A program made the translations under genes and the position numbers. From the NCBI RefSeq assembly GCF_964204645.1, contig NC_134034.1, positions 9,188,962 to 9,252,961 of the forward strand: 64,000 bases of DNA, given 5' to 3'. Numbering within the stretch: position 1 is the stretch's first letter; the number at the start of each line of letters is the position of its first letter. Positions 23,744 through 63,496 of this stretch are shown here, piece by piece. The notes under the pieces were generated by a model. It saw nothing but the letters and a program-made list of their open reading frames with translations, ran no database searches and was not told the origin of the DNA. The stretch is from Tubulanus polymorphus. Taxonomy: Eukaryota > Animalia > Nemertea.

Positions 23744-23815
23744 TATGAAGCCGTAAAACGTAACAAAAGAAGAATAAAATAACCGTATAATAGTAGAACG
23801 AGTGTAGAACGAGTG

Positions 23816-23845
23816 TGCACTTCCGAATCAAATGACGTCACTCGC
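23816..23845 (-). promoter_or_regulatory. 30-bp CRE plus ETS-like motif upstream of the Kolobok transposase
   Basis: Exact reverse complement of 20294-20323, ~70 bp upstream of the ATG at 23743. Confidence 0.55.
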
Positions 23846-34100: not shown

Positions 34101-37100
34101 CCCTTACAATACCGACCGGCTTGGTGAACGCGTCTGTACCGAGGGTATTTTGGGGGGTTTTTTTAAACCTCTGTAAACAGTAAACCAAGCATTTACCATA
34201 GAAAACTCCTATACCATGTAGTCAAGTACTTATAGGACTTGTTTCCAAAAAAAAATTCAATTTTGTGACCTTGAGGTCAAGGTCACGTGATCCAAGATGA
34301 CCGCCACGTCAACATTTTTGTAATTATTTTACAGTAAAACTGCTGTAACTTTCAAAATAGTGCACTAATTCACTCAATTCCAACTGTAAATGATGGCTAT
34401 GAATGTTTTCCTTTATTTATGAGCAATTTGAATGCTATCTGACAACTAGAAGTATTGTCTTTTAGGACTTATGTCTCATAAATTACGGTGGAGCAATTTT
34501 CATGTGCAACGAAAATTGAAAATTCATCCTCAATGTAACAGCTGACCAATCATTTTCCAGAAATAAATCATATAAAGGTTAGTCCAGAAGAGTTTAGTAA
34601 TTCATTTGGATCAAAAAAACATAATACAGCTTTCTTGATTGATGACCTTGACCTCAAGGTCACATGACCTAAGATAAACATGAGCATTGAATCGAACCTC
34701 AATTTTTACTCAAATTGCTCCATCTTTCAAGACAATTCATGAAACCAATGTATTTCAATTGTAAATGAAAGCTATGTGTATTACCTTTATTGAGAATAAA
34801 GGAGAAAACAAATAAACTTGTAGATAGCTTTCTTTCTGGTAATTTATATATATGTTGCCTCACTTGAAGTCTAACAATTTTCTTATTATTCAACTGGACC
34901 AACTCGACATACAAAAAAGTACATGTATAAGCTTAGTACTTACATAGAACTACTGTCCTGAGTAGTCTAGCTTGGTATGATACTGTTCAAAACAGTCCCC
35001 TTCAATGTGAAGGCCAGGCTGATCAACACAAGTCTTACAAATGAATGAAGTCTCAACTGGTTTTCCACTGGGTTGCCGAATTCCCCGGTCATAACAAACA
35101 CGGAATTGCTTGGTCTTCCAACGTTTGCCACTGTCTTGAAATTCGCGCACTGCTGGAAAGTGACGTCCTGTCAGTCTAGTTACGGTAGTTTGGCGCAAAA
35201 CAGTTTTGTTCAATCTGGGACTCGATGTCAGCAGTACCGCAATCGTGTCATGTAGAAATGTTAGAAACGTGTTACTCTCGGCGGCAAACTGCTCATAAAG
35301 TTTGTGAGCATTCAAAGCAGCTAATATAACCAGGTGTAAAACTAGCTTATGGCTCCACTTGTATGACCTACGCAATGTCAGAATGCTGTGTAGCTGTTGA
35401 TCAGTCAGATCGACGCCGCCCATTTTATGGTTATAATCGATGATGCATGTAGGTTTGAGTACACGATTACCCAAACGGTCAGGTTTACCTGTATCCGCAG
35501 TTTGAGCACCATGCTTGGTGGATAATAGATGAACTATTTTCGGCTTTTTGTTACTTTTGTCTTTCGTCGCCCTGTATTTTATCGCTAATACATTTTGCGT
35601 GTTGTCGCAATGAAACAACGATTCTCCCTTCTGGATATCTTCAACTTTTAGATCAGCAGGAAACATTTTCCTAGTTGGCTTACAGGTACCACATATATAC
35701 GTGTCTCTGCTCAACAGCCATACTGCAAGAGACGGTGATGTATAATAGTTATCAAGCCAAATGATTCGGCCATTGTCCAGATAGCGATCGCATAATGTTC
35801 CGACAATTTTCTCACTGGCCGATAACTCGTCAAAATCAGGCAGTGCGGCGCCACAATACACAATAAAATCTAGTGTATAGCCAGAGGATGTACATAATTT
35901 ATACAACTTGATCCCAAATCTTACGCGTTTCGTTCTAATGTACTGTTTGAATGCTATTCTTCCTTTATACAGCATAAGGGACTCATCGACACAGAGGTCT
36001 TCACTAGGCTCATACACTGTACGAAAGCGCTCGCAAAATTTATCAATCATTGCTCTCACTTTGTAGAGTCGATCCCGATTTGGATCATTGATATCTGGCA
36101 TGTTGGCATTGGTCGCGAAGTGGAGAAATCACATAATAGCTTGAAATCTGTTTCGTGTCATGCATTCACTAAAGATCGGGCTATGATAAAGTTCGTCAGT
36201 ACTCCAATGCATGTGGATGCGTGGCTGGTGGTTTATGCCCATGAGCAGATGCAGCCCAATAAAAGTTTTCATTTCGGCCAGGTCTACATCTGTCCATTCA
36301 AATGGCATATCACCTTGCATAGCGGTTTGTTTCTCGAACGATATGATCGATGATATCATCAGTGACAAGCAAATTGAAGTATCCATATGGTGTCGCATCA
36401 TTTGCCATGCGAACGCGCATGCGTTCAACAGCGGTAAGATTCAGTTGTTTCGGTCCTGTATATTCAGCTGGTTGGTTCACTTTCTGCCAATCCCAAGGTG
36501 GCTGCCTTGGGTGCTGTGGTGCTCGTCCACGCAGGGACAGGGGCAGGATTCGCAGGTCCAGCGTTAGCATTAGCGTTAGCAGCATCACCTTGTCCACGAC
36601 TGCGACCACGCCCTCGTGGCCTGCCTCATACTTGCCCACGTGCCCTGCCCCTGCCTCCTCGTACTACCGGCGGATTGGGATTGGCAGGATTGGCATTCCC
36701 ACCATGTCTAGGTCTGCCTCGCCGCCTTGGTGCAGCTGCTCGAGCTGGGACATTGTTATTAGGTGTCGGTGCCGGTGCCAGTGCCGGTGCTGGTGCAGGA
36801 GGGATAACAACATTGTTGACAAATGCATCAACAGCTGCAGTTGCTGCAGCTGCAGTAATGTGATTGTAATTATTGTCAGAATCACTTGAGGACACTGTAT
36901 CTGTAGGCCTATGTATGTGGTGGTGTGGTACGGACAAGTGCACCAAGGCCGCGATCCCTTGTACAGCCCCGTGTGGGTAATGTGGGTTGAGCCCTCACCC
37001 CATCATCACTACTGTCCAAGTCACTACTAGCATGACAAGGGGGGTCTGCATCATAATTTTGTGTTTCCCCATCAGAATTTGATTCCAAGTCATTGTTTTC

Positions 37101-37789: not shown

Positions 37790-38189
37790 TTTCGCTTAAT
37801 ATTAATTTTATTTGAAAATATGTATGAAATCTAAAAAGTGATAACATCAATGGTAAACTTGGTTTGTTTAAATGATCATTCCAACTAATTCCATATCCTG
37901 TTGTTGCGCAATAAACAGAAAAATTTAATTGGTTCTGCCAATACTTCATATTAGATTTTAATAACCATTGTTTTGCCTCATTTAAATTTTTGAAATTAAT
38001 TGTATACACATAAAATTTATTCTCCATCTTTACATGAAAATTATTACTTTCAGTAACATAAATATATAAATCAATTAATGAATTTAAAACTTCATTTCTA
38101 TATGTAATATCTTTATTAAAATCTATTGCTGGAATATTATATTTAATTGATTTATTATATTGGAAAGCTTTTGGAAAACTATCTGCCAT
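37790..38189 (-). pseudogene. Conserved PLV hypothetical protein, 3'-truncated (homolog of 58555-59889)
   Basis: YWQNQLNFSVYCATTGYGISW; abuts the EnSpm segment at ~37780. Confidence 0.6.
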
Positions 38190-38205
38190 TTATATAATTA
38201 AAAAA

Positions 38206-38640
38206 TTAATAATTTATTAATTCTTTTAATAATTTATCTTGTTCTTCAACTGTTATATGACCATTTAAACTTATTATATAATCTAGTGTATTCTTTAATT
38301 TATTAATTTCTTTTATATTAGTTTTAATTTTTTCTTTATTACTTTTTATATTTAATTTTGAACTTATACCAGTTAAAACACTTGGACTTAATCCTAATAC
38401 ACCAATTGATATAGCTAAAGGTGTTAATGGACTGAATATTGCTAGAAATGTTATTACAGAACTAATTGTAACCGAACCACTAATAATAAGATAATATATA
38501 ATTTTACTTTTTAAATATTTATTCTTTTTTATCTTTAAGTCACTTTCAAATTCTAATATTTGTTTTTCTAAATTTATTTTTAATTTAGTTTTATTTATAT
38601 CATGAGGAATAATATCAATACTATCAACTTTATCTTCCAT
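38206..38640 (-). CDS. PLV small two-TM coiled-coil protein
   Basis: 144-aa intact ORF with two hydrophobic segments; conserved second copy at 59906-60340. Confidence 0.7.
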   Translation of the reverse strand: MEDKVDSIDIIPHDINKTKLKINLEKQILEFESDLKIKKNKYLKSKIIYYLIISGSVTISSVITFLAIFSPLTPLAISIGVLGLSPSVLTGISSKLNIKSNKEKIKTNIKEINKLKNTLDYIISLNGHITVEEQDKLLKELINY

Positions 38641-38655
38641 TTATTTAGAAAAAAA

Positions 38656-39065
38656 TTACTAATTAGTAAATTTATATGCTACAAATATAACGATAACAGT
38701 TCCACCTAAAATCCATATTATTTCATATTTCTGTTGTTCTTTACTTGGGGTATAATAATCTGATAATTTAGGTTTGAATAGATGTAATTTTTCTTTATTT
38801 GTTACTGCGTTATATAAACTGATTGAAAATCTCTATGTGAAATCATCTGATCATATAATTCCTTGTTAATATAATCCATATCGTTTTGTCTCTTTTCTCA
38901 ATATTCTTCAGCTGCTTTATTGTATTTCTCTAATGCTAAGTTATGTCTTTTTTGTTCTGTTAATGATCCATTTTTATCAATATGCTTAAATAAATAACCA
39001 CCACCAGTAAATGCTAAAGCGTTAGCAATTGCCGATCCTATAATAGTTATAACTGCAGAAGCCAT
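38656..39065 (-). pseudogene. PLV membrane protein (homolog of 60357-60782), frameshifted
   Basis: MASAVITIIGSAIANALAFTGGGYLF..EQKRHNLALEKY; short deletion near 38820. Confidence 0.7.
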
Positions 39066-39089
39066 TTATTTAGTAAAATAATTATGTAT

Positions 39090-39311
39090 TTATATGGGAG
39101 GAATATATTTTTGTTTTTCCAAATAATCAATAGTTAAATTAGATAAAGTAACTGCTAATGTTAATTTTAAAATATCATTGATATCAAATCTATCAACATT
39201 AACACTTCCCATTTTGAATACTTTTTTTAATACCATTGAATAACCAACAGTTCCAACTGATAATAATGCTCCACTATATAAACCAGTTATTATCCACTTA
39301 TTATCACTCAT
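39090..39311 (-). CDS. PLV small hydrophobic protein (73 aa)
   Basis: TAAATG start; homolog at 60807-61028. Confidence 0.65.
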   Translation of the reverse strand: MSDNKWIITGLYSGALLSVGTVGYSMVLKKVFKMGSVNVDRFDINDILKLTLAVTLSNLTIDYLEKQKYIPPI

Positions 39312-39344
39312 TTATTAATCAAAAAAATTACTATCTTCAAAATA

Positions 39345-39671
39345 TTTAGTTATCTTAGTGATGATTAATTCAACATTTATTTCATTACTACTTTTATGAT
39401 TATCATATATTTCGGTTAATATGTTTTTAATATCATCTATGATAAAATCTTCATCTTATTCATAAAATCTTAAAGATTCTCTAATTAAATTAGTAATCTT
39501 TTCTACATTTAAAGTTTCTTTATATATTGTTGTTTCATACTCAAATGTTGTTTCATTAGAAAATGCAATATTTTTGATATGTGTAATTACATCATTAATG
39601 TTAAATTTCATTTCTTTCTCACGTTTAAAATCAAATCCAAAACATATACTCGGTCCAACAGTTATATTCAT
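39345..39671 (-). pseudogene. PLV hypothetical protein (homolog of 61059-61370), internal stop
   Basis: MNITVGPSICFGFDFK matches the second copy; stop at 39456. Confidence 0.55.
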
Positions 39672-39687
39672 TTATATAGTGAAAAGA

Positions 39688-40446
39688 TTACTCTTTACAT
39701 CTTATAACTAATTCATAAATTACAGGAAAGTTATTCAAATCAATTAAATAACCATTATGATTTTTTATTTCTAATTTAAAATTATTGAAATGTGGAATAC
39801 AAGGTTTAAAATCACATTCAGTTAAATTATAATTTATTTGCGTTCCAAATTGTTTAACATTTTTTAATGGTAAAATATTTAATATACTAGAATTACAAAT
39901 TGTATCTTTAGTTGCTTCAAATGTTTTTGTTGGGTCAATTAAATTGCAATAAATATAAAAATGTGTAAAAGGTATTAAGTTTGATCTACCTTCTGAGTAT
40001 GCTGTAACAATATCTGGGTTAATTCCTAACAGTTTACCTAAAGGTTTTCTTACTGTGAATTTAAATTGTTCGTCATTAGCTAACCTAATCTTTATTTTAT
40101 TAGAACTATCACTTTTTAAAATTGTAATACTAAATCCGGAATCACTTCCTAATTTAGCTCGAGCTTTTCTATTAATTTCTTGTGCTAATGTATCTAAATT
40201 ATATAATCCTGGTTTTAAATATATAAAAAACCATTTATTCCTTTTTTTGTAAAAGATTGAAAAAATTAAATGTTCTAGACTTTTATCCGATATATTGTAA
40301 AATGAGTTACATAAACTTATATTTACTAATTTTAAATCAACACAATTATTTAATTCTCTATCTAATTGAACTATTAAATTATGTGATTTATAATTTGTAA
40401 GTTTTCTAGAATCAACAAATATTCTGTATTCTTTTAATTCTACCAT
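39688..40446 (-). CDS. Minor capsid protein (penton, single jelly-roll)
   Basis: 252 aa; Polinton/PLV mCP pattern IFVDS...NSFYNI...LKPGLYNLDTL...FYIYCNLID...IKNHNGYLIDLNNFPV. Confidence 0.7.
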   Translation of the reverse strand: MVELKEYRIFVDSRKLTNYKSHNLIVQLDRELNNCVDLKLVNISLCNSFYNISDKSLEHLIFSIFYKKRNKWFFIYLKPGLYNLDTLAQEINRKARAKLGSDSGFSITILKSDSSNKIKIRLANDEQFKFTVRKPLGKLLGINPDIVTAYSEGRSNLIPFTHFYIYCNLIDPTKTFEATKDTICNSSILNILPLKNVKQFGTQINYNLTECDFKPCIPHFNNFKLEIKNHNGYLIDLNNFPVIYELVIRCKE

Positions 40447-41285
40447 TATTTATAACATAAAAAAATTACCGCTCATCACTAAAAATAAATTTTAATAAAA
40501 TTTTTCCTTAATAAATGGATGAGAAGATACCATGCGAAATTTTTGGTGAACTTCTAAGAAAAAGTAATATGGCTCGACATATGAAAAAACATGATGAAAA
40601 TTATAAACCCCCTAAACTAAACTGTCCAAAATGTAATAAATTATTCTCAAGAAATTATGTTAAAAAACATTCAGAGAAGTGTAAAATTAATGGCGCAACA
40701 GCTAATGTTGATAGTAACGAAAGTAATAGTAATTCTGTTGAAGTTGAACCTGAAGTTATTTGGAAAAGACCTTTCTTATTCTATGATAAGGATAATATAA
40801 AAGATCATTTCTGTGAGCCTTGTCGAATAAAATATAGCCCTGAAAATATAGAAGATTGGGAGAATCATCAATTTCGTAAAGTACATATACAGAGCTGCCA
40901 ACCTTGATTTCATCTTTGGCTGAACACATGTCCAGATTTATCAGTATTTTCAAAAATTTTCCAGTAGTCCCAAATTTTCAAAACAGAAAACGCTTAAAAA
41001 GTCAGTATTAAGTTATCAAAAGTCTGTATTACAATTAACACATAGAACGTTATTCATAATAGAACAAATTCTATTAAAATATATTAAAATATATTGAAAT
41101 ACTTCAGTAACAGAAATATTATTGATTGTCGAGATCACAATTAACTAAAATTAACAGTCACAGTAGAAAAACACAACAAAACTTTTGTTTGTTGATAAAC
41201 TAAAATAAAACATAACATAACATAGCAGTAACAATAATAATACTAAATTTATGATCAGGCACTAGATAATGCCAGTGTGTTGCGA

Positions 41286-42241: not shown

Positions 42242-42280
42242 AAGAGAAATTAGATAAGGACCGGCGGGGTCCTCGGGGAT

Positions 42281-42980
42281 GGGTCTGACTATTTCAGATG
42301 GCTGGGAGTCACCTTCATTTCGGTCAACGAATTATACATTTAGACTTCACCTACGATGTAACGTAGCACAATACACTGGGTTCGAATCCCGTAAATCGTT
42401 CCAGGAACTCGGTCCCTCAGCGCAATTCGTTCAAACAAAATTCCCATTTTTTGTCTGAATGAAATTCAATTTAATGACCAATAGAAACTTATTTCCAATC
42501 AGGAGATCTGCTAACCAAAAGGAAATTCCTTAAAAAGTCCTCGTAAATTACATTCAACTTGAACAAAAATATAAACTAAAACCATATATATGTACCATAC
42601 AAACTTTTTTATTTCACAAATTTCTAAATTTGAATAAACACCACATTGTTCTGATATAAATCAAATTACACAATTTTAAAATTTGAATATACATGTACAT
42701 AGTTCTGATTGACTTGGAAATTTGAAAATTGGATTACAACACGGCCTTACAGCATTTTAATAGTGCATACGGTTCAGATGATGTTAGGTGACATTGAGTA
42801 CAATATGGTGAATATTACAAGTCGTTGATATACAAATATGGTGATTGACAAACATTTCTCTACAACGATCGGGTTACTAAGATATAAAAAATTATTATGT
42901 GTAAAAAGTTAAAAAGCAAACCAAAATGGCCAAAGTGTGCAGAAACCTGTTGCCGAAGTGTGCAGAAAATAAATGTTATC

Positions 42981-43040
<60 letters not shown>

Positions 43041-44052
43041 GGTATATATATGCCAATGAGTCAACACATTTACAATGGACAAAAATTTTCCACAACTTTA
43101 AATGTTCCTATATTAAAATAATTAGCATATTTTTTATGTAACTAATCGACACCACATTTGTGCTGTGTAATGATCCCAATAACCATTATCAAAAATACAT
43201 CATATACATGTTATATGGAGTATTAGACAAAAACATTAAGTCAAAAAGCAGTAAGTGAAAGAGAAAAAAGCATGTTGCACCCCCCAACAAAAATATGTTT
43301 TGGTATTAAGTCCATTCAAGTCAAGCATTTATAGAATTAAAAATATAACCAGAAAATTATAGTTTAAGTAGGCTAGGCCAAGCAAAACTGGCAGCTTGTC
43401 AAAGCGGCATCATAGGGGGGGGGGGGGGGCGATGAAGCATCTGCCCCCCATAATTTTGGGTACGACCTAATTTTTTGTAATGATCACCATTAGGCTATAT
43501 ATTGTGATTTCGCTGAAATTAAATGAAGTGGTTTGCCCCAATAATACCCGTAATTCCGGTGACGCGCGCCTGCATGTATTAGCCTATAGACATACGATCA
43601 TATCGAAAAACAGTACAGGAAGGCTTATTCGTACTGGTGCATATATGCTGTTTGCGAGGCCATATGTCAACACGACAAGTGTTTTCTTAACACAACACTC
43701 ATCAGCTTATAAGTTATTATACTGTACTATAGGCCTAGATAGATAGAACAGAAAACAATTAACAAGACTAGAGTCAGAGAGACATTAAAATTACGGTAAA
43801 AGATAAACATACCACCACAATATTCAGAGAAATTTTCCTTCCACCAGACGCACCACTTAGTTCTTGACTTCAATTCGTGTTCATTGATGAGTGATGACAC
43901 CGCCATAAAATCATGACAATCATGACGACAATAAGACGGATCGGAAGATGAAGTTGAATCGTCCGCCATTTTAGGTACGTAGGTAAAGTCTAAATGTATA
44001 ATTTGCAGACCGAAATGAAGGTGACTCCCAGCCATCTGAAATAGTCAGACCC
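42281..44052. mobile_element. Non-autonomous Mutator-like (MULE) element
   Basis: 45-bp perfect TIR GGGTCTGACTATTTCAGATGGCTGGGAGTC... extending imperfectly to ~75 bp; 9-bp TSD CTCGGGGAT. Confidence 0.88.
42983..43038. repeat. (TA)n microsatellite
   Basis: About 28 TA units. Confidence 0.98.
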
Positions 44053-45260
44053 CTCGGGGATGAACAAATGAAGATCGTCGATCATCGGGCCAAACTCCAC
44101 CCTCAACTTACAAGTTTGATTGAGAGAAAATGAGGAAAAACGAAGTAAATTGCTTTAAAAAGACATTTTGTCAATCCGTAATATATCAATTTTTTCCGTA
44201 CTCTCTGGTGAAAATATCCGTAATGATTTTTCAAAAAACGGAACCCCGTATTTTGTCACGATTTTCCGGAACTGTTACGGAAAAATCAGAACGGTTGGCA
44301 GCTCTGCATATAGATAAAATTTCTAATTAATTTGAAACTGAATTCAATGAAAGAAAAAATAGTTTATTAGAAAAAATAAAATATGAGAAAACGTTACCAG
44401 ATAATAAAGAAACAGTTGAAAAGTTAGAAAAACAATATAATGAATTAACAAGAAAAACATATTATTGTAAATATTGTAAATTGATTATTACAACAAGTAA
44501 TTCAAATCTACATAATAGAACAATAAAACATAAAGAAAACGTAAGAAAATACCAGGAGCTTAATGAAGATTTATTACCAATAAATTATAAACGAAAATGT
44601 CCACAATGTAGTTATGCGACCTTAAGGCAAGAAGGTACTGTGTTATTTTGTAATGAATGTGGATGGCAAAAGAATTTATGGGGTGAAGAAAAAACGAGAT
44701 TTTCTCATAGAACCAAAATTAAATAATCTTGATGAAATTTTTAAAATATTTTCTATAGAAGATCATACACCAGAATATAAGCAATGGCTTGAAAAAATGA
44801 AAATAATAGAAAATGAAAATGGTGAAATAACTAAAAAAGATATTATAAAAACAATTATTCCATCAACATTTAACACAAAACAAAAGAAAATGTATTTATA
44901 TTTATTATTTAACGATTATTATGAAAAACCGAAATTAACAGAAGAAGATATGGAAAAGATAAAAAAAATATTCAAACAAATATTAATGTATCATTTGGAA
45001 AATAGAATAACAGATTCAATTAATTATGAATTCTTTTTAAATAAGATTGTAAATTATTTAAACATAGATATTATAATTCCATTTGACGAATTAACAAACA
45101 AAAAGAAACAAAGAGAGCGAGATGAAATGTGGTACAAGATAGAACTATATTTAAATGAGAAAAATGAAATGGAAGAACCTAAACAAATTATACAAGAACA
45201 ATTAAATGAAAATGAAGAAGCCAATAGTGATTTCGAGTATGATGATATTGATTTTATGTT

Positions 45261-48200
45261 TTAATGGCCATAAGGTAATGTTTTTATACCATCATCTAAA
45301 ATATGCCTTTTATCATCAAATGGATTTAAACTAGTTTTTTCAACTTCATTAATGTACATCTCGTGATCTTCTGATCTTAAACAATTCATTTTATGTTTCA
45401 TTACAATTGATTTATATAAACACTTGAAATTCTATATGTTTATCAACCACATGTTTTGTTATTCCTTTTAACTTTTTAGCTTCATGATCTTTTGTTCTAT
45501 AACTATACATTTTACTTCTTATCCCAACAAATTCAATCATTTCATCACCCCCTAATTCATCTTTAAATTAACCAGGAATGTTTTTATTATCATTGCTAAA
45601 TAGTTCATGATCTTTGGGATAATTGCTAAAATCAAAATGATGTTTTAAAGTTTTTAAGTCTTTTGTTAATTGGAATTAATGGGAACCCAGAATTGAATGT
45701 TCCATCATCTGTTGATAAATCATAAACATAGTCAGTTGGGTTATATATTTCAAATAAATCTTTAACTTCTTCTGTTAACTCATTTTCTACATGGCTTAAA
45801 TTAAAGCAATTTGGTTTAGATTTAATCAATCCAATATTCATATTAATCCTAATGAACTGCATAATATATTCAATCCTGATATAGCAACTTTTCCTTTTTG
45901 AGCTAAAGATATTGTTTTGCGGTTTTTGAAACTTTTTGAACCATCTGCAGCATAGAATCCAATGAAGAACCATTTTCTTAAATTATTTTTTGCATTTAAT
46001 ACATAATCTGGAACTATCTTTTCTTTTGTTGAAGTATTACTTTTAACTATTGCATGAATATAGAATTCATCATTATATTTTATAGCAAAATCTTTAGGAT
46101 TATTTACAAGTATTCTATAAACTGCTGTTGATTTCATAACATCCATGATTTTAAATGTTTTATTTGGATAAACTTCTTCACAGAATTTCTTAATTCTTTC
46201 TAATAATTTTAAGTCTTGATTGCATAAATACCAACAATATTGAGTGCGATTAACATAATTATACACACCTGCTGAACCATCACCCATGAAAAATCCTTTG
46301 ATAAAATATTCTTTTTCTTCTAATGTTTCGGGTTCTATATTATAAATATTATCAATAATTTCATCGAATGACATATGATTCATTCTTTGGAAAAATCTTT
46401 TATGTAATAATTCATCTCCAATTTCTATATCAGTTGGTTTTATTTCATCGCCATTTCGTTTAATTAAACTATGATCTTCTGTAACATCTACAAATCCAAA
46501 TTTAGTTCTTACTCTATAGATTTTCTTATTTGTTTTATGTCTAATAATATTCTTTAATTTTTTCCATCCATTTCTTGTCCAAACATCCATTAAACCATTT
46601 ATTTGTATTAATTCTTTTTCACCATATGAAATATAACATTCATTTTGTTTTGGATTTATTTCTGAAATTCTTCTTATCAATATTTTATCATTACATTTTT
46701 ATAATATTGGGGTGTCAGCTGTTACAGAATCAAAATATAATATTTCAATATGCTTTTCCCCAAAAAGTGGTTGTAAAACATTATAATAAAAATCATACAT
46801 TAATAATTTTGATACTTCTAAAACAGTTGAACCAATGAATATAGGTTTATCAAATTTCATTGACGTTCTTTTTAATTTAACTGCTGTTAAATAATCTTCA
46901 AATCTTTTATTTCCTAAATGTCTAGGACTTGATTGTAAATGTCTTAATCTTTCAGAATTATTTACTAATTCAATATCATTTCTATTTCTAATATTTTCAC
47001 ATGTTTTACCATGAAAACTATTGTTCATTAATTTGAAGAAATCTTTTTCAAAATCTGTTTTTGATATGGTTCTCTGTTGAGTATTGAAATCTTTTCTTTA
47101 ATTTCATTCCTTGTTTTAGATAAAATTTTAACATTCTATAATGAACAATATAATTGTATTTATTATTTTGAGTAAGTATTAATTTTTCTGTAAAAACATG
47201 ATCTTTCGGTTTTATTTTCTTCTGGTATTCACTTAAATAACTATCATCTACAGTTAAATGTTCTGGGCAATAAGGTAAGTTTCTTGTTTTAAACTTTATA
47301 TTTTCAGGATATTCTAAATCAACTACAAAGAAATAACCAATTGGTGCTTCATCTTCTAAACTCATAATTGCGCTTTCCCAATCAGTTTTATCACCATTTT
47401 CAACTTCTGTTAATATAAAATTTTTATATGGTTGAGGTTGCATCATTGCCCAACCATATAAATTATTGGCGTCAATATATAATAATTTATATTCATCATT
47501 TGCTTTAAAATATCTCCCATAACACCACTAATTCCACCTCTAATTGATTTTTCAAATAATAAAACCATATCTGGTTCTTTTAATAAATCTAATTCTACAT
47601 TTGTATATTTTAAACCACATTGCCAGGTTAAACCAGGACTAGAGTAGCATTAACAAGGATCAACATTAAAATGATTCAAATTAACTTCTCTAAATTTTTC
47701 AAATATGTCAGCCAATATCATAACATCTGATTTTAAATATAAATCAACTAATTCACCATGATTTTTCATCTTAAAATGGTTCCAAATATTTAATGTTCTA
47801 TTAAACACTTCGTCTTTCACATACTCCTCTTTTAATTGATCATAAAATTGATCTTTTAATAATTCTGTTACATTAAAATCATTGTGTGTTTTATAAAATG
47901 AATAAGGAATTGCGCCTTTATATCTCAATAATTTAAAATCTTGTTCATTTGGATAATAATATCGAGTTATAACAAAATCATTATCAACTAAACTTTTTGA
48001 TAAATTATCTAATGAACTTGCTAGAAATCTATAAGAATCTAAAAATCTAATGCAACCAAATTGAAATGAAATATAATTTTCAGATTTTTTAGCTAATAGT
48101 TTAAAATCATATTTTCTTACATTTACACCACTCATAGCATTATATTCTTCTATTTCTTGATAAATTGCGCCCAATTTCTTTGATAATTGTTTTATAAATA

Positions 48201-50223
48201 GATGGGTATCATAGCCTGATAAATTATGAAATAATATTGGTACGAAATTAACTTTCTTAGCTTGTAAATTGCAATCTTCATGAGCAGCTCCACGATATTT
48301 TGAATTTAAATGATCATGATCTCTAACTTCTTTATCAAATGAATAAAAACGTTTTTCACAATAACAACAATGAGTTGCATAATTAAAATCAATTTCATCT
48401 TCTTTTGTCATAACTATTCTTTTATTTTTGTTTAATAATTTTGCAAAATCACTTTCTAATTCAATCATTTTGTCACAAAAATCATTAACTACATCTTCAC
48501 CTCTAAAAGAAATATATTGACTTTCATATAATTCGGGATAATTTGATTTGATGTAAATTCCATAAGCAGCAGCTCTTTGATGAACTTTTTTAATTGTATT
48601 TATAATTGGCGGGTCTTGTGTTGTGTCTTCATTTAATTCATTTCCTTTATCGATTGATTTTAATAATTGCTTTTTGTTATATATTGCTTTTCTATCTTGA
48701 TCAGTTAATTCTTTATTCAACGATTCAAAGTCCCCATAAATTACAAATGGAACTATATTCTTAAATTTATGATTAGTAAATTTCAATTTATAATCTTTTT
48801 CTGTTGGCATTATTAATTTACAAAAATCTTTATTATCACATAATTCTTTTTGTTTTTATAATGTATTCTCAGTCATAAATTTAGATAAACATTTTCTACA
48901 TAGATAAATTTTATTATGGTGATCACTTTCTGTTCTAAAGAATAAATCAATTTGTTTTAACCACATATAATGTTCATTTTCATCTTTTTTGTAATATAAC
49001 AAATCTATAGCATTTTCATCATCATAATATTCTGTTAAATATAAAGCTTCCAATCTATAATCTTTAATATTTTCACCTTTTGTCTTTGGTAATTGCATTA
49101 ATTCAAATACATTTATTTTTAAATTATTAACTTTTTCTATTTTAGGAATCATTTTTATAGTTACTGGATATTGATCAATTTTATATAATGTTTCATATTT
49201 CCGGTAATTTGTTATTCTAAAACTATGCGTCATATCTTCTGTTGAGTGTAAACAACTAATAATTGACCATAGAAAACATTTATTATCTTCATTTTGAACA
49301 TTTATTACTGCTTTTGTTGTAAATGGTAATTTAATATAAGATGATGCTTTAATATCCTTTTCTGTTGTAAAGTTTGAATCATTTTTAAACATGTTATTAC
49401 TTTTTGGTGTTTTATTCCTTTTTGTATTGTAAACATTTAAATCTAAATATATAATTTCATTCAATGTTAAGCCAGAACCCTCAAAATATCTTTCTTCAAT
49501 ATGACGTTTAAATTCATTAAATATTTTTTCTAACTTCTCTTTTATTTGTGTTTTTGAAATTATTTCTTCAGAGTGTGTTTGAATATTATAATTCATTTTT
49601 TCTTCTGACTTTATAAAACTTACTTTCCCAGAGATACTAATTTTTGGATATTCAACATCTGTTATCAAATCTAGTATTTTTTCTATTATTTCATTAAATT
49701 TACTATAATCTTCTATTGTTGTTCCTTTAAAAAATCTAAATATAATAGCTGCAGGACCAATTTTACTATGTAATGTTTCTAAAATTTCAATTGTATCTTT
49801 TATTTCTAGTGAATCAATATAATTTCTAACATTTTCCATGTAAGGTTTATTTGAAATGGATTTAGTTTTTGAAGTTGGTTTTTTTACTTGTTGAGGTTTA
49901 TCATCAAAATAATCTTTTCCTAAAACATTATTACTCAAATTTTGGCAGTGTTTTTGTGATTCGAGATGTCTATTATAATTCCTTTTTACTATAAATTCAT
50001 TACAAACTTCACATTTTATTTCATCCACATTCATATTTTCTAATCTTTCTTTTCTTTCATTGGAATTTTCTGGAGTTTCAAAATCTATTACATTTTTTAT
50101 ATGATTTGCAGTTTTTTCATGTCGTGATTTTTGGGATTTATCGATGTATTTTTTACAATATTAGCAATAATATTGATTTTTATTAACATTATTGTTTTCT
50201 GGCTGGTGTTCATTCTCCCCCAT
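45261..50223 (-). pseudogene. polB: Protein-primed family B DNA polymerase of Polinton type with N-terminal C2H2 fingers, EndoVII-like HNH insert and an intein
   Basis: NVQNEDNKCFLWS; Exo motifs IYGDFES, FHNLSGYD, YLKSDV; VRDHDH..YRGAAHEDCN; motif A YIDANNLYGWAM; motif B KLMNNSFHGKT; motif C YFD| split by the intein; C-terminus PFDDKR..TLPYGH. Several stops and frameshifts. Confidence 0.92.
45674..46728 (-). mobile_element. LAGLIDADG homing-endonuclease intein in pPolB motif C (pol-c-type site)
   Basis: Block A SVTADTPIL directly after YFD; block B VDVTEDHSLI; blocks C and E FIKGFFMGDGS, FFIGFYAADGS; block F YVYDLSTDDGTF. The terminal Asn and extein TDS are missing in this copy, apparently by a short deletion. 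Confidence 0.88.
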
Positions 50224-54969: not shown

Positions 54970-55562
54970 TATTGTATGTTCAATAGAATTATCATGTTTA
55001 ATTTTATCTTTAGGTAATACAACAACATTACACTTTTCACATATATTTCTTTCTACATTATCCAAATGTATTTGAGTTAATTTATGCTTTGAAAAATTAC
55101 TACGACTTATATATTTATCACATCACAATATTCATCTTCTTTAACATTATCATTATCAATTTCACTATCATTATTAAATTCGTTTATAGTCGTATTCTTA
55201 TTTTTCTTATCCTGGAGTGAATTAAGATGAGTTGCCCAATTCGTATAACTTTTATACTGTTTACATACGTCACAATATTTTTCATTTGTCTTTTTGGTTT
55301 TGATATCAGGTTCAATCTTATCATCATTCGATGTAGAAGGTATAACATAATCTTCTATTTTAGATTCAATATTATCTTCTATTTTAGGTTCAATATTATC
55401 TCCTATTTTTGTTTCAATATTATTATCTATTTTACTTATTCTATATTTGAATTGATTAAAGTATTCTCCAAAATACTTACTGTATTCATCATAAGGTATT
55501 ATATAATATATATCTGGTATCATTTCACTTGGACTTTGTATTTCATATATTCCTCCTTCCAT
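54970..55562 (-). pseudogene. PLV multi-C2H2 zinc-finger protein
   Basis: YCDVCKQYKSYTNWATHLNS and further C..C..H..H units beyond a frameshift; short IE.KIED repeats. Confidence 0.55.
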
Positions 55563-55594
55563 TTATTATAAAAATTTTTATTAAAATTAAAATT

Positions 55595-56848
55595 CTAATA
55601 CATAACACTATTCAATTGAGAATTTACAATATTTAATTGCGCGTCAGATATGATGTAAATGTGCATTTTAAAATTTAAGCTTCCTTTTTTCTTTTTCATG
55701 AATAATTATATTCCATCTTTAGTGTTCTCTAGTTTTTTCCCAGAACCATGTAATAAGTTATCCTCTGTTGTTTTAAAATCTAACCATAATGCATATTTAT
55801 TACCGGTATAATAATCAATTTGATTAATATTACAATTTTCAGATGATTTTACTTTTTCATTCATAAAATGTTTTCTAATTTCTGGCCACTGATCTATCAT
55901 TCTCATTCCTTGACAAAATATTTTATTTGCTATGCCTTCGATGGTTATATCTACTTTTGTTATTTCAGGATTATAATACTTATCAACCTGTATTGCACCA
56001 TTAGAATATGTTGCAATGGTAAAAAATATTAATATACCTTTAATAGATCTTCTTGGGAAGTTAATATTCTCATTAATTATTTCATCATGTGCATTAATAG
56101 TTACAGTTTTAAATTTATCAATATAATCATATAATTATGAAAATCCTTGATTGTATTGAGTTTGAATTATACTTGAAATATTTTCATCAGTTACTGTATC
56201 ATATTCTAAACATATATTCGATAATTTATAACCCATATCTTAAATTATATTTGATATTAAAATTTCATTAGCAGGACCAAATGTTATCTCAAATATAATA
56301 TCTTCTTGAATTGTGCATTTATATAAAGGTGCATTTTTATTTATCAATTCAAAATCTAATGGAATTTTATATTTGCTTCCATTAATCTTTTCGATCAAAT
56401 TATCTACGTCATTAGTTACTACTGCATTATTAGCTTCTGATCTTAATTTATTTTGGTTTTCTGATTGGATGCCTTGAAATATCATATTATTTCTATTTCC
56501 TTTTGTTAACCATAAATCTTTGTAATGCATAAATAAATTATAATCATCTAATGAGAAAACTGTTTCTGGCCCAATCTTTATAGTTAATTTTTTAATCAAA
56601 TATCTTCCAACATTATCAACAACATTATTATTATTATTATTATTACCAGTTACATTTATATCAGCTGATAAATAAATACTATTTGGAACATAAAAAGTAT
56701 TTTGTGTTAATCTAGGGATTCTAACATATAAAGTTTCATCAGGATTAATATAAGAAGGGTTATGAGTAATTATATGATGAGATCTTTCTGCTTTAATAGC
56801 GTTAGATATTCTAGGATTCTTAGAAGGATTTACATAACTCCAACTCAT
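55595..56848 (-). pseudogene. Major capsid protein (double jelly-roll), ~415 codons, frameshift near 56240
   Basis: THNPSYINPDETLYVRIPRL, NVGRYLIKKLTIKIG, YKDLW, YKIPLDFELI, KYALWLDF..LHGSG and C-terminal HIYIISDAQLNI; size and context fit a PLV MCP. Confidence 0.65.
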
Positions 56849-56868
56849 TTATTTAACAAAAAAATTAA

Positions 56869-58562
56869 TTATCTATTTTTCATCATATTCACTAGCCCAA
56901 AAATAATAGCACTTACAACTGTAATTAAAAATAAAATAATATGTTCAGCAGCAAAGTTAAGAATATTCCCAGCAGATTTCAATATAAAACCAACAATTGA
57001 TGCAATAACTCCGGGTAAAGCTGCAGCAGATTTTTTAGATAGTTCCCATAATCATTTTGCTAATTTTTTTAAACCATCCTTAACTTTATCTTCTATAGAA
57101 TTATTATCATTTGGGGGTTTATCCGGTTTATTGGAAGTAGAAGTAGATTTCAATGAATTTGATATAGCTAAACCAATTGTTGTGAAAACCATAGTTACAG
57201 CTGATAGAATTGAAAGAATTGTTATTCCTTCTAATTTATATAATAATTTTTTTCTGTCTTTCAATGATATTTTAGAATCTGTTTTTATTATTAAATCTTT
57301 AAAAATAACTTTTAATTTTTTAATATGATTAAGATCATATGATTTTAATAATATATCTCTTCCTTTTTCCTGAAATTCTTTGTTATATTTTAAATCATCT
57401 ATTTCTTTTTCTAAAGCTAACTTTCTGCATTCATTATCAACTTCATCAATTACTTGAAGATCTCTATTTAATTCTAATTGTTTTAATTCTTCATTTGCAT
57501 TAGTTAATTCTTTTTCTAACATGGTTATTTTAGAAAATCTCATCTTAATATTAGCAATTTCACCAGCTGATTCTTGCATACCTTTAATTTCTCTACGTGC
57601 TTGTTCAGGAAATATGTTCAATTGTTCTTCATTTAAATCAAGTAATCCTTTTTCTAGTAAAGATTGTATTCGATTTATTCCAGTTTCAGCACCGGGTGTA
57701 TCTAAAACACTATTCATCTCTTCTTCAAATGAGTGAACTGTATCTAACATGCTATCAAAATGTTTTACTAATTGTAATTGACTTGAATCATTATCAATTT
57801 GTTGAATATCTCTTCTCGATGTTTCTGGTGTTGAAGATCTTAATATATCTAATCGATCTGCAAAATCTTCATCATTTTCTGGGTCAACAAAAGTAGGTTT
57901 TGGATTTGGATTTTTAAATGGTGAATAATTGTTAATATCAATATTCGGAATCGGTTCATCTTCATTTATTCTATCGAGTGCATATAATTCTGCTAATTTC
58001 TAAACCACCTTTTGAACGTTCAATTGTAGATCTTGCTCGCATTCCAGGTTCATACATATTTTCTTGTCCCATTCTAGATAATTGAATTGTTACAGTTTTC
58101 CTATTTAATTCAAGATTATAATACCATGCATCCTTTTTAAATTCTAAATTATTCATGAAATGTGGATCATCTTTTAAAATTTGCATTACCTTCTGTATCA
58201 ATTTCATCTATTACAACTTTTGGTAATAATTGGTTAACAATTGTTTCTGTTACTCTAGATTTCATTTAATATAATTCCATGGGTTTATCAGGATATTCTT
58301 CTTGTTGTTTTTCTAATAGATTCATTAATTCTTTTCTTTCTGTTATAGTTGTAATTCTACCAATTTTAGGAGCTTCTAAATATTTATTTAATTTTTCAGG
58401 TACCTCGGCATTAATTCCATCATAATCATCATCATTATTTAAATTAGAATTAAATGCTAATCCATCATCAATACTGATACTAGTATCAGGAAAATCAAGT
58501 TGCGGTTCATCACTTATACGGGGGGAGTCACCAACAGTATCCAATGGAATTTCTTTATCCAT
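56869..58562 (-). pseudogene. Large coiled-coil protein with C-terminal membrane segments
   Basis: TAAATG at 58562; ORF pieces 58266-58562, 57971-58207, 57052-57750; tail ALPGVIASIVGFILKSAG..EHIILFLITVVSAIIFGLV. Confidence 0.55.
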
Positions 58563-59889
58563 TTATATAATAGAAAATTAAATATAATATTCCTCCTATT
58601 ACAATTCCTATACAAGTAATAGCTAATTTAGTATTTTCATTTGATTTATTATCATTATCAGTTTTAATTATGTCATGTTGAATAATATCAGTTTTTATAT
58701 TTTCTGATGTATTGTAATCTTTTATTTTAGAATCATTATTTAATTTAATATTCTTAGTTTTAGTTTCTGTTGATTGAATATGTTTTTTATTTTTTTCACC
58801 TTCCATTAATTTTGGAGCAGTGAAAATCTTTTTATTTATATCATACGATCCAAACTTATTATTTATTGTTGCAGTTTTTATCAAATTATTATAACCAATT
58901 ATATTTCCCATTTTTAATACTAAATCATTAGAAATAATTAATAGATTAGGGCCTATACAATAATTTAATCTAATATGTGATTTATCTAAATAATTTTGAT
59001 ATCTTACAATGTTTTCTGGAATCGATCTATTTTTATCATTGTGAATGGAATCTTCAAATAAAACTTTGAATTGTTTCTGCGCGTCAAATGAAGTGTTATC
59101 ATTTCCAACTATTGGTGATCTTGTTTCAACTTGCGCACCTAGAATACATATCAAATGAGGTCTAATTGATTGATTTATTCTTTGTATGCCTGATTTTGTA
59201 AAACCTTCACTATTTTCTAAAATAAAATTAATCCAACCATTATTGTTTTGTTGTTGTATATTATTATAATATTTTGGTAATTCATTCCAATTTAGTGTTC
59301 TTATATCTGTATTTGTCATTATTTTTCCAAATTCGTTAGTATATAATATTCCTAATCCACCCATTGTACCAATTTTTGCTCTAAAATCATTATTTGAATT
59401 AATATTAAATTCATTACATATTTCATAAAACTTCGAAAAATTAATATTATTATTTAGTTCATTAAAACATTTTGAACCTGGTAAAGGACATTCTAATTCA
59501 TCTTATATTAATTTTATTTGAAAATAAGTATGAAATCTAAAAAGTGATAACATCAATGGTAAACTTGGTTTATTTAAATGATCATTCCAACTTATACCAC
59601 ACCCTGTTGTTGCACAATAAACTGCAAAATTTAATTGGTTCTGCCAATATTTCATATTGGATTTAAATAACCATTGTTTTGCCTCATTTAAATTTTTAAA
59701 ATTAATTACGTAAACATTGAATATATTTTCCATCTTTACATTGAAATTATTAGTTTCAGTAACATAAATTTCTTAATTAGTTAATGAATTTAAAACTAAA
59801 TTTGTATATGTAATATTTTTGTTAAAATCTATTGCAGGAATCTTATATTTAATTGATCTATTATATTGGAAAGCTTTTGGAAACCCCAT
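58555..59889 (-). pseudogene. Conserved PLV protein with C-terminal TM anchor
   Basis: TAAATG at 59889; YWQNQLNFAVYCATTGCGISW; RINQSIR..ILGAQ; tail ITCIGIVIGGILYLIFY. Confidence 0.6.
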
Positions 59890-59905
59890 TTATATAATTA
59901 AAAAA

Positions 59906-60340
59906 TTAATTATTTATTAATTCTTTTAATAATTTATCTTGTTCTTCAACTGTTATATTACCATTTAAACTTATTATATAATCAAGTGTATTTTTTAATT
60001 TATTAATTTCTTTTATATTAGTTTTCATTTTTTCTTTATTACTTTTTATATTTAATTTTGAACTTATACCAGTTAAAACACTTGATGATAATCCTAGCAC
60101 CCCAATTGATATAGCTAAAGGTGTTAATGGACTGAATATTGGTAGAAATGTTATTACAGAACTAATTGTAACTGAACCACTGATAATAAAATAATATATA
60201 ATTTTACTTTTAAAATATTTTTTCTTTTTTATCTTTAAGTCACTTTCAAATTCTAATATTTGTTTTTCTAAATATGTTTTTAATTTAGTTTTATTTATAT
60301 CATGAGGAATAATATCAATATTATCAACTTTATCATCCAT
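59906..60340 (-). CDS. PLV small two-TM coiled-coil protein
   Basis: Intact 144 aa; homolog of 38206-38640. Confidence 0.7.
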   Translation of the reverse strand: MDDKVDNIDIIPHDINKTKLKTYLEKQILEFESDLKIKKKKYFKSKIIYYFIISGSVTISSVITFLPIFSPLTPLAISIGVLGLSSSVLTGISSKLNIKSNKEKMKTNIKEINKLKNTLDYIISLNGNITVEEQDKLLKELINN

Positions 60341-60356
60341 TTATTTAGAAAAGAAA

Positions 60357-60782
60357 TTACGAATTAGTAAATTTATATGCTACAAATATAACAATAACTG
60401 TTCCGCCTAAAATCCAAATTATTTCATATTTCTGTTGTTCTTTACTTGGGGTATAATAATCTGATAATTTAGGTTTGTATAGATGTAATTTTTCTTCATT
60501 GGTTACCGCGTTAGATAAACTCATTGCATCATCAACTGATTGAAAATCTCTATGTGAAATCTTCTGATGATATAATTCTTTGTTAATATAATCCATGTAA
60601 TTTTGTCTCTTTTCTCTATATTCTTCTGCTGCTTTATTATATTTTTCTAATGCTAAGTTATGTCTTTTTTGTTCTGATAATGACCCATTTTTATCAATAT
60701 GCTTAAATAAATAACCACCACCAGTAAATGCTAAAGCGTTGACAATTGCCGATCCTATTATAGTTATTATTGCAGATACCAT
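60357..60782 (-). CDS. PLV membrane protein (N- and C-terminal hydrophobic helices, central coiled coil)
   Basis: Intact 141 aa; TAAATG start. Confidence 0.7.
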   Translation of the reverse strand: MVSAIITIIGSAIVNALAFTGGGYLFKHIDKNGSLSEQKRHNLALEKYNKAAEEYREKRQNYMDYINKELYHQKISHRDFQSVDDAMSLSNAVTNEEKLHLYKPKLSDYYTPSKEQQKYEIIWILGGTVIVIFVAYKFTNS

Positions 60783-60806
60783 TTATTTAGTAAAATAATT
60801 ACGCAT

Positions 60807-61028
60807 TTATATAGGAGGAATATATTTTTGTTTTTCCAAATAATCAATAGTTAAATTAGATAAAGTTACTGCTAACGTTAATTTTAAAATATCATTTATA
60901 TCAAATCTATCAACATTAACGCTTCCCATTTTAAATACTTTTTTTAATACCATTGAATAACCAACAGTTCCGACTGATTATAATGCTCCATTATTTAATC
61001 CAGTTATTATCCACTTATTATCACTCAT
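60807..61028 (-). pseudogene. PLV small hydrophobic protein, internal stop
   Basis: Homolog of 39090-39311 with a TTA-to-TAA change near 60980. Confidence 0.6.
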
Positions 61029-61058
61029 TTATTTATCAAAAAAATTACTATCTTCAAA

Positions 61059-61370
61059 TTATTTAGTTATCTTAGTTATAATTATTCCAACATTTATTTC
61101 GTTACTACTTTTATGATTATCATATATTTTAGATAATATATCTTTAATATCATCGATAATTCGATCTTGATTTAATCCATAATATTCTAAAGGCGTTTTA
61201 ATTAAATCAATTACTTTTTCTGTATTATAATTTTCTTTATTAATCATTGATACATTATTAAATGATTTACGTTTAATATCGGTAATTACATCATTTAGTT
61301 TAATTCTCATTTCTTTACCATGTTTAAAATCAAATCCAAAACATATACTCGACCCAACAGTTATATTCAT
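61059..61370 (-). CDS. PLV hypothetical protein (103 aa)
   Basis: TAAATG start; homolog in segment A. Confidence 0.6.
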   Translation of the reverse strand: MNITVGSSICFGFDFKHGKEMRIKLNDVITDIKRKSFNNVSMINKENYNTEKVIDLIKTPLEYYGLNQDRIIDDIKDILSKIYDNHKSSNEINVGIIITKITK

Positions 61371-61386
61371 TTATATAGTAAAAAAA

Positions 61387-62144
61387 TTACTCTCTACACT
61401 TTGTAACTAATTTATATATCACAGGAAAGTTATTCAAATCAATTAAATATCCATTATGATTTCTAATTTCTAATCTAAAATTATCAAATTTAGGAATGCA
61501 TGGTTTGAAATCACATTCTGTTAAATTATAATTTATTTGCGTTCCAAATTCTTTAACCTTCTTCAATGGTAAAATGTTTAATAAACCAGAATCACAAGTT
61601 ATATCTTTAGTTGCTTCGAATGTTTTTGTAGGATCGATTAAATTGCAATAAATATAAAAGTGTGTAAAAGGTATTAAGTTTGGTGTAGCTTCAATATTTG
61701 TTAAAGATTTATCTGGAGGAATTCCTAACAGTTTAGCTATAGGTTTTTTACCATAAATTTATGTTTTTCAATATCAGCCAACATTATCTTTATTTTGTTA
61801 GAACTCTCACTTTTTAAAAATCTAATATTAAACCCGGAATTATTACCTGACTTGTGCCAGGCTTTTCTATTAATTTCTTGTGCCAATGTATCTAAATTAT
61901 ATAACCCTGGTTTTAAATATATATAGGCCCATTCATTTTTATTTTTATTAAAAATTAAAAAGGCTCTATGTTCAACAGTTTTATTCGATATATTGTAAAA
62001 TGAGTTACATAAACTTACATTTACTAATTTTAAATCAACACAATTCTTAAATTCTCTATCTAATTGTACTAGTAAATTATGTGATTTATAATTTGTAAGT
62101 CTTCTTGAATCAAAAAATATTCTATATTCTTTTAATTCTACCAT
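61387..62144 (-). pseudogene. Minor capsid protein, second copy, frameshifted near 61740
   Basis: Homologous to 39688-40446 over its full length. Confidence 0.7.
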
Positions 62145-62161
62145 TTATTTTACATATTTTC

Positions 62162-62516
62162 TTATTCGACATCTATTTCATGGTGCCCTTTTTTATTCTT
62201 ACCTGTGTATATGAAATAGAAATCACCTGAACATAATTCTTCTGAATCTTCACTTGATAATCTATGAAATCTATCTGGTAAATATGTTCTGAATTTATAT
62301 TTATTTCCTTTTAATCCTTCATATTCTAACTGGATAACTAATTTACTACCATATCTATTAGTAACTGTATCAATATTTGCAATTAGATATTTCTTATGAA
62401 TTGTTAATTCTGTTAACTTCTTAAATTTATAATCTACTGATTTATCATTTGTAGTATATTTTTATTCTATCTAGAAATGATCTGTTGTTCTCACTGTGTA
62501 CTTGTTTATTCTCCAT
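62162..62516 (-). pseudogene. Small beta-rich protein, possibly OB-fold/SSB-like
   Basis: TAAATG at 62516; after a frameshift FKKLTELTIHKKYLI..VTNRYGSKLVIQL...TYLPDRF...FYFIYTG. Confidence 0.35.
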
Positions 62517-62628
62517 TTATAATACATATTTTAATTAAAATTGATTTTAGAAGTTATGAGATTAATATTTTTAGAGTAATAGGAAATAAGTTGTTAAAGG
62601 TTGAGAGGGATTCATAATATGAATATAA

Positions 62629-63243
62629 TACCCTCTCTGTCTTTATTGACTTTAGTAGTTTTAGTACTTTTAGTACATAAAGAATAAATCTTTATATTAT
62701 CAATACTTTAAAAATAAAATAGAACTACTAAACTCCTAAAGAGATAAAGACATAAATATATATATTACTGTTTCAATAATAATATTTATTCATCTGATGG
62801 ATTTTATATTACTGTTCCAATAATAATATTTATTTATCACACATATTTATTATATATTACTGTTTCAATAATGATTAATATCATAGATTTATCATGTATA
62901 AAAATTATTTATATATTTATGTTTCTAAGTACTAATAAAATAAAGATATATTCTTTATGTACTAAAAGTACTAAAGATAATAAAGACATAACAAACACAC
63001 ATAGATTTATCATATATATTTGATTCAGTAATAAATATCATAGATTTATTTATCTCACAGATTTATTATATATATTTGATTCAGTAATGATAAATCTATA
63101 TGTGTTTGTTGTGACTCTATTGTTTTTATTGTCTTTAGTAGTTTAGTAGTTTTAAACATAATTTTATTCAGTACTGATAAAATAAAGATTCTTTATTCTT
63201 TGTGTACTAAAAGTACTAAAGATAATAAAGACACAAGGAGGTA
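62629..63243. repeat. AT-rich nested inverted-repeat region
   Basis: ~130-bp imperfect inverted arms (62629-62760 vs 63100-63243), a third partial copy at 62930-62990, and inner hairpins. Confidence 0.75.
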
Positions 63244-63496
63244 TTAATTTGAAATAGTTTCTATAATATTTCAAATTTTATTTTATAAATTTATATTCAT
63301 AGGGAAATTGAAGCCTCAGAAGTAATTTTGAACCTTTATTATTCTTTAATTTATTCATATATTCATCATGTAATTCAGTAGGTATAATTTGATTTTCTTC
63401 CAATGTTTGTTGCATAGATTTTCTATCTTTGTTATAAAATAAAACTAAAAATCTCATAATATATTAATATCATCACTCATTTATTTTAGTTAATTT

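Follow-up and report, generated by a model that had tools for sequence, protein, structure and literature searches.

A decayed copy of an endonuclease-bearing intein splits motif C of a protein-primed Polinton DNA polymerase belonging to family B (pPolB) in the genome of Tubulanus polymorphus. We put at roughly 0.8 the probability of this reading, by which intact copies of the intein are predicted to splice and would likely have spread by homing. The window analysed is a stretch of 64,000 nt of contig NC_134034.1, in which the insert is read on the minus strand. The intein type is a known one, the kind of host gene is new, and the kingdom of the host genome is likely to be new as well.

The insert and its host polymerase

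The low-GC tract running from 50160 to 45264 on the minus strand encodes a protein-primed family B polymerase, recognised by tblastn of its relatives and by the Pfam domain DNA_pol_B_2 (PF03175), for which the host protein scores above the cut-off. This gene is interrupted, at the D|T junction within motif C, by a minus-strand insert of 1,055 bases (45674..46728), corresponding to an intein of about 352 codons with a Hint domain and a two-motif LAGLIDADG endonuclease, 61-63% identical to the intact intein of protein P0001. The N-side of motif C, YFD (46737-46729), forms the N-terminal splice junction, across which empty-site relatives are continuous, and directly after it the insert begins at 46728 with SVTADTPIL. 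The intein blocks A, B and F and both nuclease motifs are present on the same strand: block A with Ser1 (46702..46728, from the sequence and a profile match), block B with its Thr-x-x-His (VTEDHSL, 46465..46491, by motif reading), a first LAGLIDADG motif (KGFFMGDG, 46273..46305, by motif reading) and a second one (GFYAADG, 45937..45969, by motif reading and a profile match), each with its acidic residue retained, and finally block F with its Asp and the start of block G (DYVYDL...GFPLI, 45674..45733, by motif reading), which gives the insert a GFPL-type end. Over 45841-45674, the window is identical to the related protein P0454 at 40 of 56 residues.

The window piece reaches 28.1 bits with TIGR01445, the intein N-terminal domain (cut-off 24.5), and 30.5 bits with Pfam LAGLIDADG_3 (cut-off 22.5). 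As a truncated piece it stays at 21.6 bits with Pfam Intein_splicing, below the cut-off of 35.8, which the intact relative P0003 passes with 37.7 bits. Coordinates and motifs thus bear out the first-pass annotation, which had described some 350 codons inserted after YFD, starting with SVTADTPIL and holding TEDH, two LAGLIDADG helices and VYDL; its identification of a LAGLIDADG intein at the pol-c site of a pPolB is upheld by the two profiles above their cut-offs and by the D|S...N|T junctions of the relatives.

The window copy itself is a dead member of the intein family and cannot work. A stop codon interrupts it at 46699..46701, and a one-base frameshift lies at 45844..45847, where same-species reads carry an extra base in 69/109 cases at 45844 and in 11/97 at 45847. 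Comparison with intact relatives reveals a loss of about 41 bases at 45670..45673, which took away the C-terminal splice junction together with what followed of motif C: about 15 codons are absent and 4 bases stand in their place (net ~41). The codons lost are the last three of the intein, terminal Asn included, and about twelve of the extein, starting with the +1 residue, and the polymerase restarts at 45669 in a different frame. As delimited by tblastn of relatives, the N-extein (46729..50160, minus strand) is interrupted by several stops and frameshifts and carries an insert resembling Endonuclease VII, and the C-extein (45264..45669, minus strand) is broken. The stop at 46699, the frameshift near 45845 and the missing C-terminal Asn and TDS had all been flagged beforehand as caveats, correctly.

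The element and its genomic context

Three low-GC tracts of the window resemble fragmented Polintons. Beside the polymerase, two convergent low-GC ORFs (44331..45264, plus strand) are likely part of the same element, because they have the same high read depth as the pPolB. A separate low-GC gene cluster on the minus strand (55100-64000), which runs off the window, holds weak capsid-like matches below cut-off (Capsid_N, E 0.003, 56243-56848; DUF5901, E 0.002, 61740-62144) and is probably the structural half of a Polinton. Two of the three tracts have in common a 2.7-kb low-GC block with Polinton-like small genes, at 37795-40459 and 59502-62156, with 88% identity. These copies are broken into fragments, and the tract on the right continues past the window; no integrase, packaging ATPase or protease appeared among the 96 window ORFs, and no terminal inverted repeats in a repeat scan of 37-64 kb. 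With capsid matches this weak and these genes and repeats lacking, the Polinton label therefore relies mainly on the polymerase. A PHROGs search of 13 low-GC ORFs gave nothing useful.

The window is rich in transposons, with Helitron, piggyBac, hAT, Harbinger-like and MULE remnants interleaved with the element. A Helitron helicase ORF of 1,079 aa is found at 10611-13850 and a piggyBac-type transposase ORF at 34950-36128. Just left of the element, a pair of 78-base inverted repeats (94%; 42278-42355 and 43978-44055) surrounds 1.6 kb and likely delimits a non-autonomous DNA transposon. Whole-genome sequencing of one species gave reads that cover the element as well as its flanks. At 23372-23827 there is a THAP domain (E 5e-15), a domain described as animal-restricted in the available part of 10.1101/2021.02.01.429122, and the nearest eukaryote-named pPolBs are those of insects, with 34-37% identity. 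The THAP domain and these insect names make it highly probable that the host genome is that of an animal. Polinton-type pPolB fragments were also encountered under Bartonella and Sulfurimonas names (P0242, P0302-P0304, P0330), and are probably host DNA within bacterial assemblies.

Sibling copies in the same species

Sibling copies were approached with unphased whole-genome reads of the same species, amounting to about 12% of one run. The breaks of the window copy are private to it, and sibling copies lack them. The intein stop is absent from 235 of 249 reads at 46700 and the extein stop at 47650 from 259 of 262, and 36 reads cross the C-junction with further letters, a figure that consists of counts without residues. 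At five near-fixed sites the window's own letter is found in only 3-22 reads, which points to tens of copies of the element in the genome.

Read depth is 209 within the intein against 556 in the bins adjoining the site, and 73 reads join the empty-site junction, so that about 35-45% of the copies aligning at the site would be filled. At 88% likeness, the depth of the intein is about three quarters of that of the extein, and many empty copies may therefore belong to a more diverged subfamily. Nine flank variants located within about 100 bases of the site stand at 55-65% in these unphased reads, close to the empty share. Third codon positions account for 16 of the 22 segregating sites listed in the intein (p 2e-4, for the best-supported rows, beside which 332 more exist), an excess suggesting that intein subfamilies diverged under selection as protein. 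Many reads stop matching at 45581 (44 reads) and at 46824 (191 reads); these positions delimit a zone, reaching some 100 bases to either side of the site, in which depth doubles. This zone may be a conversion tract that a diverged subfamily has in common with these copies, or may simply reflect the conservation of motif C.

Intact relatives, splice junctions and predicted fold

A protein search with the window intein piece returned 215 longer proteins, of which the best 120 were considered. Among these 120, the six best matches are all pPolBs, with 46-61% identity; pPolBs make up 8 of the 120 matches listed, and the others are mostly annotated as RNA-primed PolBs, with a few topoisomerases. 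The D|S...N|T arrangement is found in all five full-length pPolB inteins (P0001, P0002, P0003, P0005 and P0006), and among 22 shorter matches, P0454 (76% identity) closes its intein with Asn followed by Thr. The terminal Asn followed by Thr that had been sought in siblings is thereby present in 5/5 full-length relatives and in P0454. Another shorter match, P0459 (76% identity), has the same N-junction as the window, and motif C is uninterrupted in the nearest intein-free pPolBs (64-73%). The Thr-x-x-His of block B and the Asp of block F are common to the window copy and its relatives, and both nuclease motifs are retained in the window piece and the relatives examined. The penultimate His is replaced by Lys or Ser in several relatives and is likewise absent from many viral pol-c inteins.

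Structure prediction indicates that one relative folds as a full intein, with a Hint domain and a LAGLIDADG endonuclease. In the model of P0005 (pLDDT 80.7), a relative about 48% identical, residues 143-481 are exactly the predicted intein. They superpose on residues 1-537 of PDB 2cw7 (Z 26.6, rmsd 4.2, 301 aligned), and the model also matches 1mi8, which is a mini-intein (Z 17.6, rmsd 2.0, 128 aligned), as well as, with residues 272-441, I-DmoI (Z 15.8, rmsd 2.3, 155 aligned). The intein reading had been staked beforehand on a Hint-fold match, and it is this match to 2cw7 that the P0005 model provides. A PDB sequence search with P0005 returned no match.

Filled and empty alleles in related families

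Two protein clusters, those of P0003 and P0005, contain both filled and empty members. Together with the empty sites in same-species reads, they supply the intein-free alleles that the first-pass annotation had proposed to look for. In the P0003 cluster (136 members), 12 proteins were compared, 7 filled and 5 empty, with 94-99% identity. All 10 residues diagnostic of the filled or empty state are located at -7 to +44 relative to the site, and the remaining 1,091 columns contain none; the p of 1e-11 overstates independence, because all ten may stem from a single event. Within the cluster the filled flank does not vary, and its first 12 downstream residues are those of the filled alleles of other families (P0442, P0448), the families sharing this flank being only about 70% identical. 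Empty members of the cluster display three different versions of the site. As far as these alignments go, differences confined to the flanks are what copying-in with flanking co-conversion would be expected to leave, perhaps accompanied by escape through target change.

In the P0005 cluster, the filled P0138 and the empty P0141 differ at 2 of 739 extein residues, a pair that would correspond to either a very recent gain or a precise loss. Judged from the proteins surveyed, the intein is rare among Polintons: the site is empty in 133 of 135 pPolB representatives, the motif is not shown in the other 2 and none is filled, and the intein occurs in 0/117 further proteins from the pPolB search. The P0441 cluster gathers 55 short ORFs made of a nearly whole intein and a few extein residues, several of them with a changed residue after the +1 Thr; it is possibly an amplified, degenerate pPolB fragment.

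Origin of the intein

The intein trees were rooted with inteins of another PolB site, and P0106, a long branch that had earlier been drawn into the pPolB clade, was left out of both the 48-row and the 160-row trees. The pPolB inteins form one clade, with an SH-aLRT of 99 in the 48-row quick IQ-TREE analysis and of 100 in the 160-row FastTree analysis. On a long stem, this clade is nested among viral pol-c inteins, and giant-virus MAG loci are among the members of the group around it (support 91-96). Of 12 of the nearest MAG names, seven could be found in the accessible part of PMC8575486 (supplementary table), all of them marine Imitervirales. The nearest relatives of the window intein are other Polinton pPolB inteins, with 46-76% identity, and among the matches listed no giant-virus intein exceeds 45% over long matches. 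No pPolB extein was present among the 160 loci from the intein scans (among the matches listed), and viral contigs scanned with P0001, P0153 and the capsid-like ORF gave no match. One viral subgroup has the same unusual GFPL-type end, and a clade joining it to the pPolB inteins is compatible with the data (p-AU 0.545), though it does not emerge from the trees.

A single clade nested among giant-virus PolB inteins argues for a single, old jump followed by spread among Polinton families, and this jump would predate the Polinton family of the window because the pPolB inteins form one long-stemmed clade. Derivation from the giant-virus PolB intein radiation, as first suggested, is therefore retained. 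The likeness drawn at the same time with the mimivirus PolB intein, which has 351 aa, a YGD|TDS site and a Ser start according to the part of PMC549080 consulted, holds for the similar length and the Ser start; SVTGDTPI opens many viral PolB inteins.

When the presence of the intein is mapped on a tree built from 146 exteins, 6 changes are required, at least 5 of them forced by starred branches, and the intein label is somewhat clustered (7/500 shuffles as low). P0006 is absent from this tree because its exteins do not align: its intein is 45-49% identical to the others, and its exteins barely align (local scores of 34-72 versus 284-350).

Six rows first classed as pol-c (P0060, P0089, P0091, P0094, P0113 and P0114) were rejected as such. 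They are related Ser...Asn inteins that interrupt type II topoisomerases at a D|TD junction. The intein group has thus invaded a protein that is not homologous, at a motif resembling the usual one. Of these six topoisomerase inteins, five form one clade with P0114. A pol-c intein of the same broad group is also present in P0072, a Chloropicon primus (green alga) protein annotated as DNA polymerase delta.

Proposed mechanism

The canonical class 1 splicing route employs Ser1, Thr+1 and a terminal Asn. In intact copies, Ser1 would attack the Asp-Ser bond, the Thr+1 of the extein would take over the ester and the terminal Asn would cyclise. Splicing would then rejoin the two aspartates of motif C and restore the polymerase, and would be obligatory for this enzyme because the insert splits its active site. 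The endonuclease, a monomer with two LAGLIDADG motifs, likely cuts the polymerase genes of other Polinton copies where the site is empty, and when a filled copy then serves as the template for repair, the intein would be brought in along with about 20 bases upstream and about 130 downstream. Over longer times, one old jump from the RNA-primed PolB of a giant virus (Imitervirales-like) would have been followed by movement between Polinton families, and a later transfer may have reached the barely alignable pPolB lineage of P0006. A family of elements with many copies would offer the standing mix of filled and empty sites that homing needs, a mix that single-copy animal genes would lack.

Going beyond the window copy, it is tempting to picture an intein that is active, self-splicing and homing in animal nuclear genomes, sweeping Polinton copies by gene conversion, leaving behind empty copies with changed targets, and crossing between RNA- and protein-primed polymerases and between distant Polinton groups. 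This broader picture we regard as tentative, with chances slightly short of even.

Alternative explanations

The footprint attributed here to homing could also belong to a splicing intein gained once long ago, inherited vertically with Polintons and precisely lost many times after homing had ceased. Intein and extein identities are indeed roughly parallel within one pPolB group (59% and 63% between the window and P0001, 69% and 66% between P0002 and P0003), filled proteins tend somewhat to group together on the extein tree, and P0138 and P0141 accommodate a precise loss as well as a gain. However, vertical descent does not agree with filled and empty alleles differing only in the flanks of the site, with a filled flank common to families only about 70% identical, with the presence of the same intein clade in the barely alignable extein of P0006, or with the retention of both nuclease motifs in the window piece and the relatives examined; we consider it unlikely. 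The identity of the host raises a different question, since the intein could be just as described and yet reside in a protist or other eukaryote, or on a contaminant contig. No host gene was identified in the window and the closest pPolBs are metagenome proteins, but the THAP domain, the insect names on the nearest eukaryote-named pPolBs, the interleaving of the element with transposon remnants and the coverage of element and flanks by the reads of one species render a non-animal host improbable.

The first-pass annotation had taken the intein as a mark of co-residence with a giant virus, from which it would have jumped directly in shared host cells. After the Polinton inteins, the closest relatives are same-site inteins of giant-virus PolBs, and the GFPL-type end common to one viral subgroup, with its possible joint clade, would also suit such a jump. 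Against it, other Polinton inteins are closer and form one long-stemmed clade, the best viral identity is 45% among the matches listed, and the classified viral neighbours are marine Imitervirales. None of the giant-virus hallmarks (RNA-primed PolB, RNA polymerase, A32 ATPase, late transcription factors) passes the Pfam cut-off among the 96 ORFs, so that co-residence is without support in the window; we abandon this part of the earlier proposal as very improbable. Least credible of all is a non-splicing nuclease insert comparable to the HNH/VSR domains of Polinton pPolBs. The window copy lacks a terminal Asn, and Polinton pPolBs are known to acquire nuclease domains (in the part of 10.1101/2023.08.22.554363 available), but the insert splits the catalytic motif, the relatives keep all splicing residues and are modelled with a complete Hint fold, and the terminal loss is private to the window copy. 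A splicing, homing intein, decayed in the window copy, remains the reading that we prefer.

Implications

The absence of inteins from Metazoa, where a census counted 0 in the part of PMC5784728 consulted, underlies the work on intein inhibitors. This rule is qualified by a splicing-type intein that an integrated element carries in tens of copies, in a genome that is likely an animal's. The need of homing for standing empty alleles, provided by a many-copy element and not by single-copy genes, suggests why the absence holds elsewhere. In the literature searched, this is the first concrete case for the guess, made in one sentence of the consulted part of PMC11161782, that the nuclease inserts of Polinton pPolBs came from intein invasions.

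The intein is also a trace of genetic exchange between Polintons and giant viruses, which implies that the DNA of both once met in one cell. Since alleles with and without the intein occur together and diverge only close to the insertion point, single genomes would allow both the cycle of homing and the escape of target sites to be measured. Conversion tracts would mark when and where Polinton copies recombine, and would thus bear on the question of whether Polintons replicate as free viruses.

Comparison with known systems

The literature searched yielded no earlier account of a Polinton or pPolB intein; it did not extend to Repbase, to journals behind subscription or to the supplements of bioRxiv papers, which may mention one. 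The terms 'intein', 'homing' and 'LAGLIDADG' are absent from the available part of 10.1101/2023.08.22.554363, as is 'intein' from PMC8502044, and the supplements of PMC10710043 and PMC5784728 do not contain 'Polinton', 'Maverick' or 'protein-primed'. The parts of PMC12220804, PMC3671162, PMC5718144 and PMC13768754 consulted describe no such intein.

The pol-c inteins of giant viruses and archaea (PMC549080, in part) are alike in their motif C site, Ser start, Asn end, Thr+1, length of about 350 aa and two LAGLIDADG motifs. They reside in RNA-primed PolBs, whereas the host here is the pPolB of a small integrating element, its inteins form a clade of their own, and many filled and empty copies exist in one genome. 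Endogenous giant-virus PolB inteins in algal and protist nuclear genomes (PMC10710043; 10.1101/2024.09.03.611062; both in part) similarly place a viral polymerase intein on chromosomes, but in RNA-primed PolBs of algae and a labyrinthulomycete, in contrast with a Polinton of a likely animal genome with signs of homing. Inteins are also present in animal DNA viruses, the invertebrate iridoviruses (PMC5784728, in part), which differ as large free viruses of another phylum. The HNH/VSR inserts of Polinton pPolBs (10.1101/2023.08.22.554363; PMC11161782; both in part) share with the present case a nuclease domain within the pPolB; here, however, what interrupts the active site of the polymerase is a Hint domain that is complete and has splice junctions.
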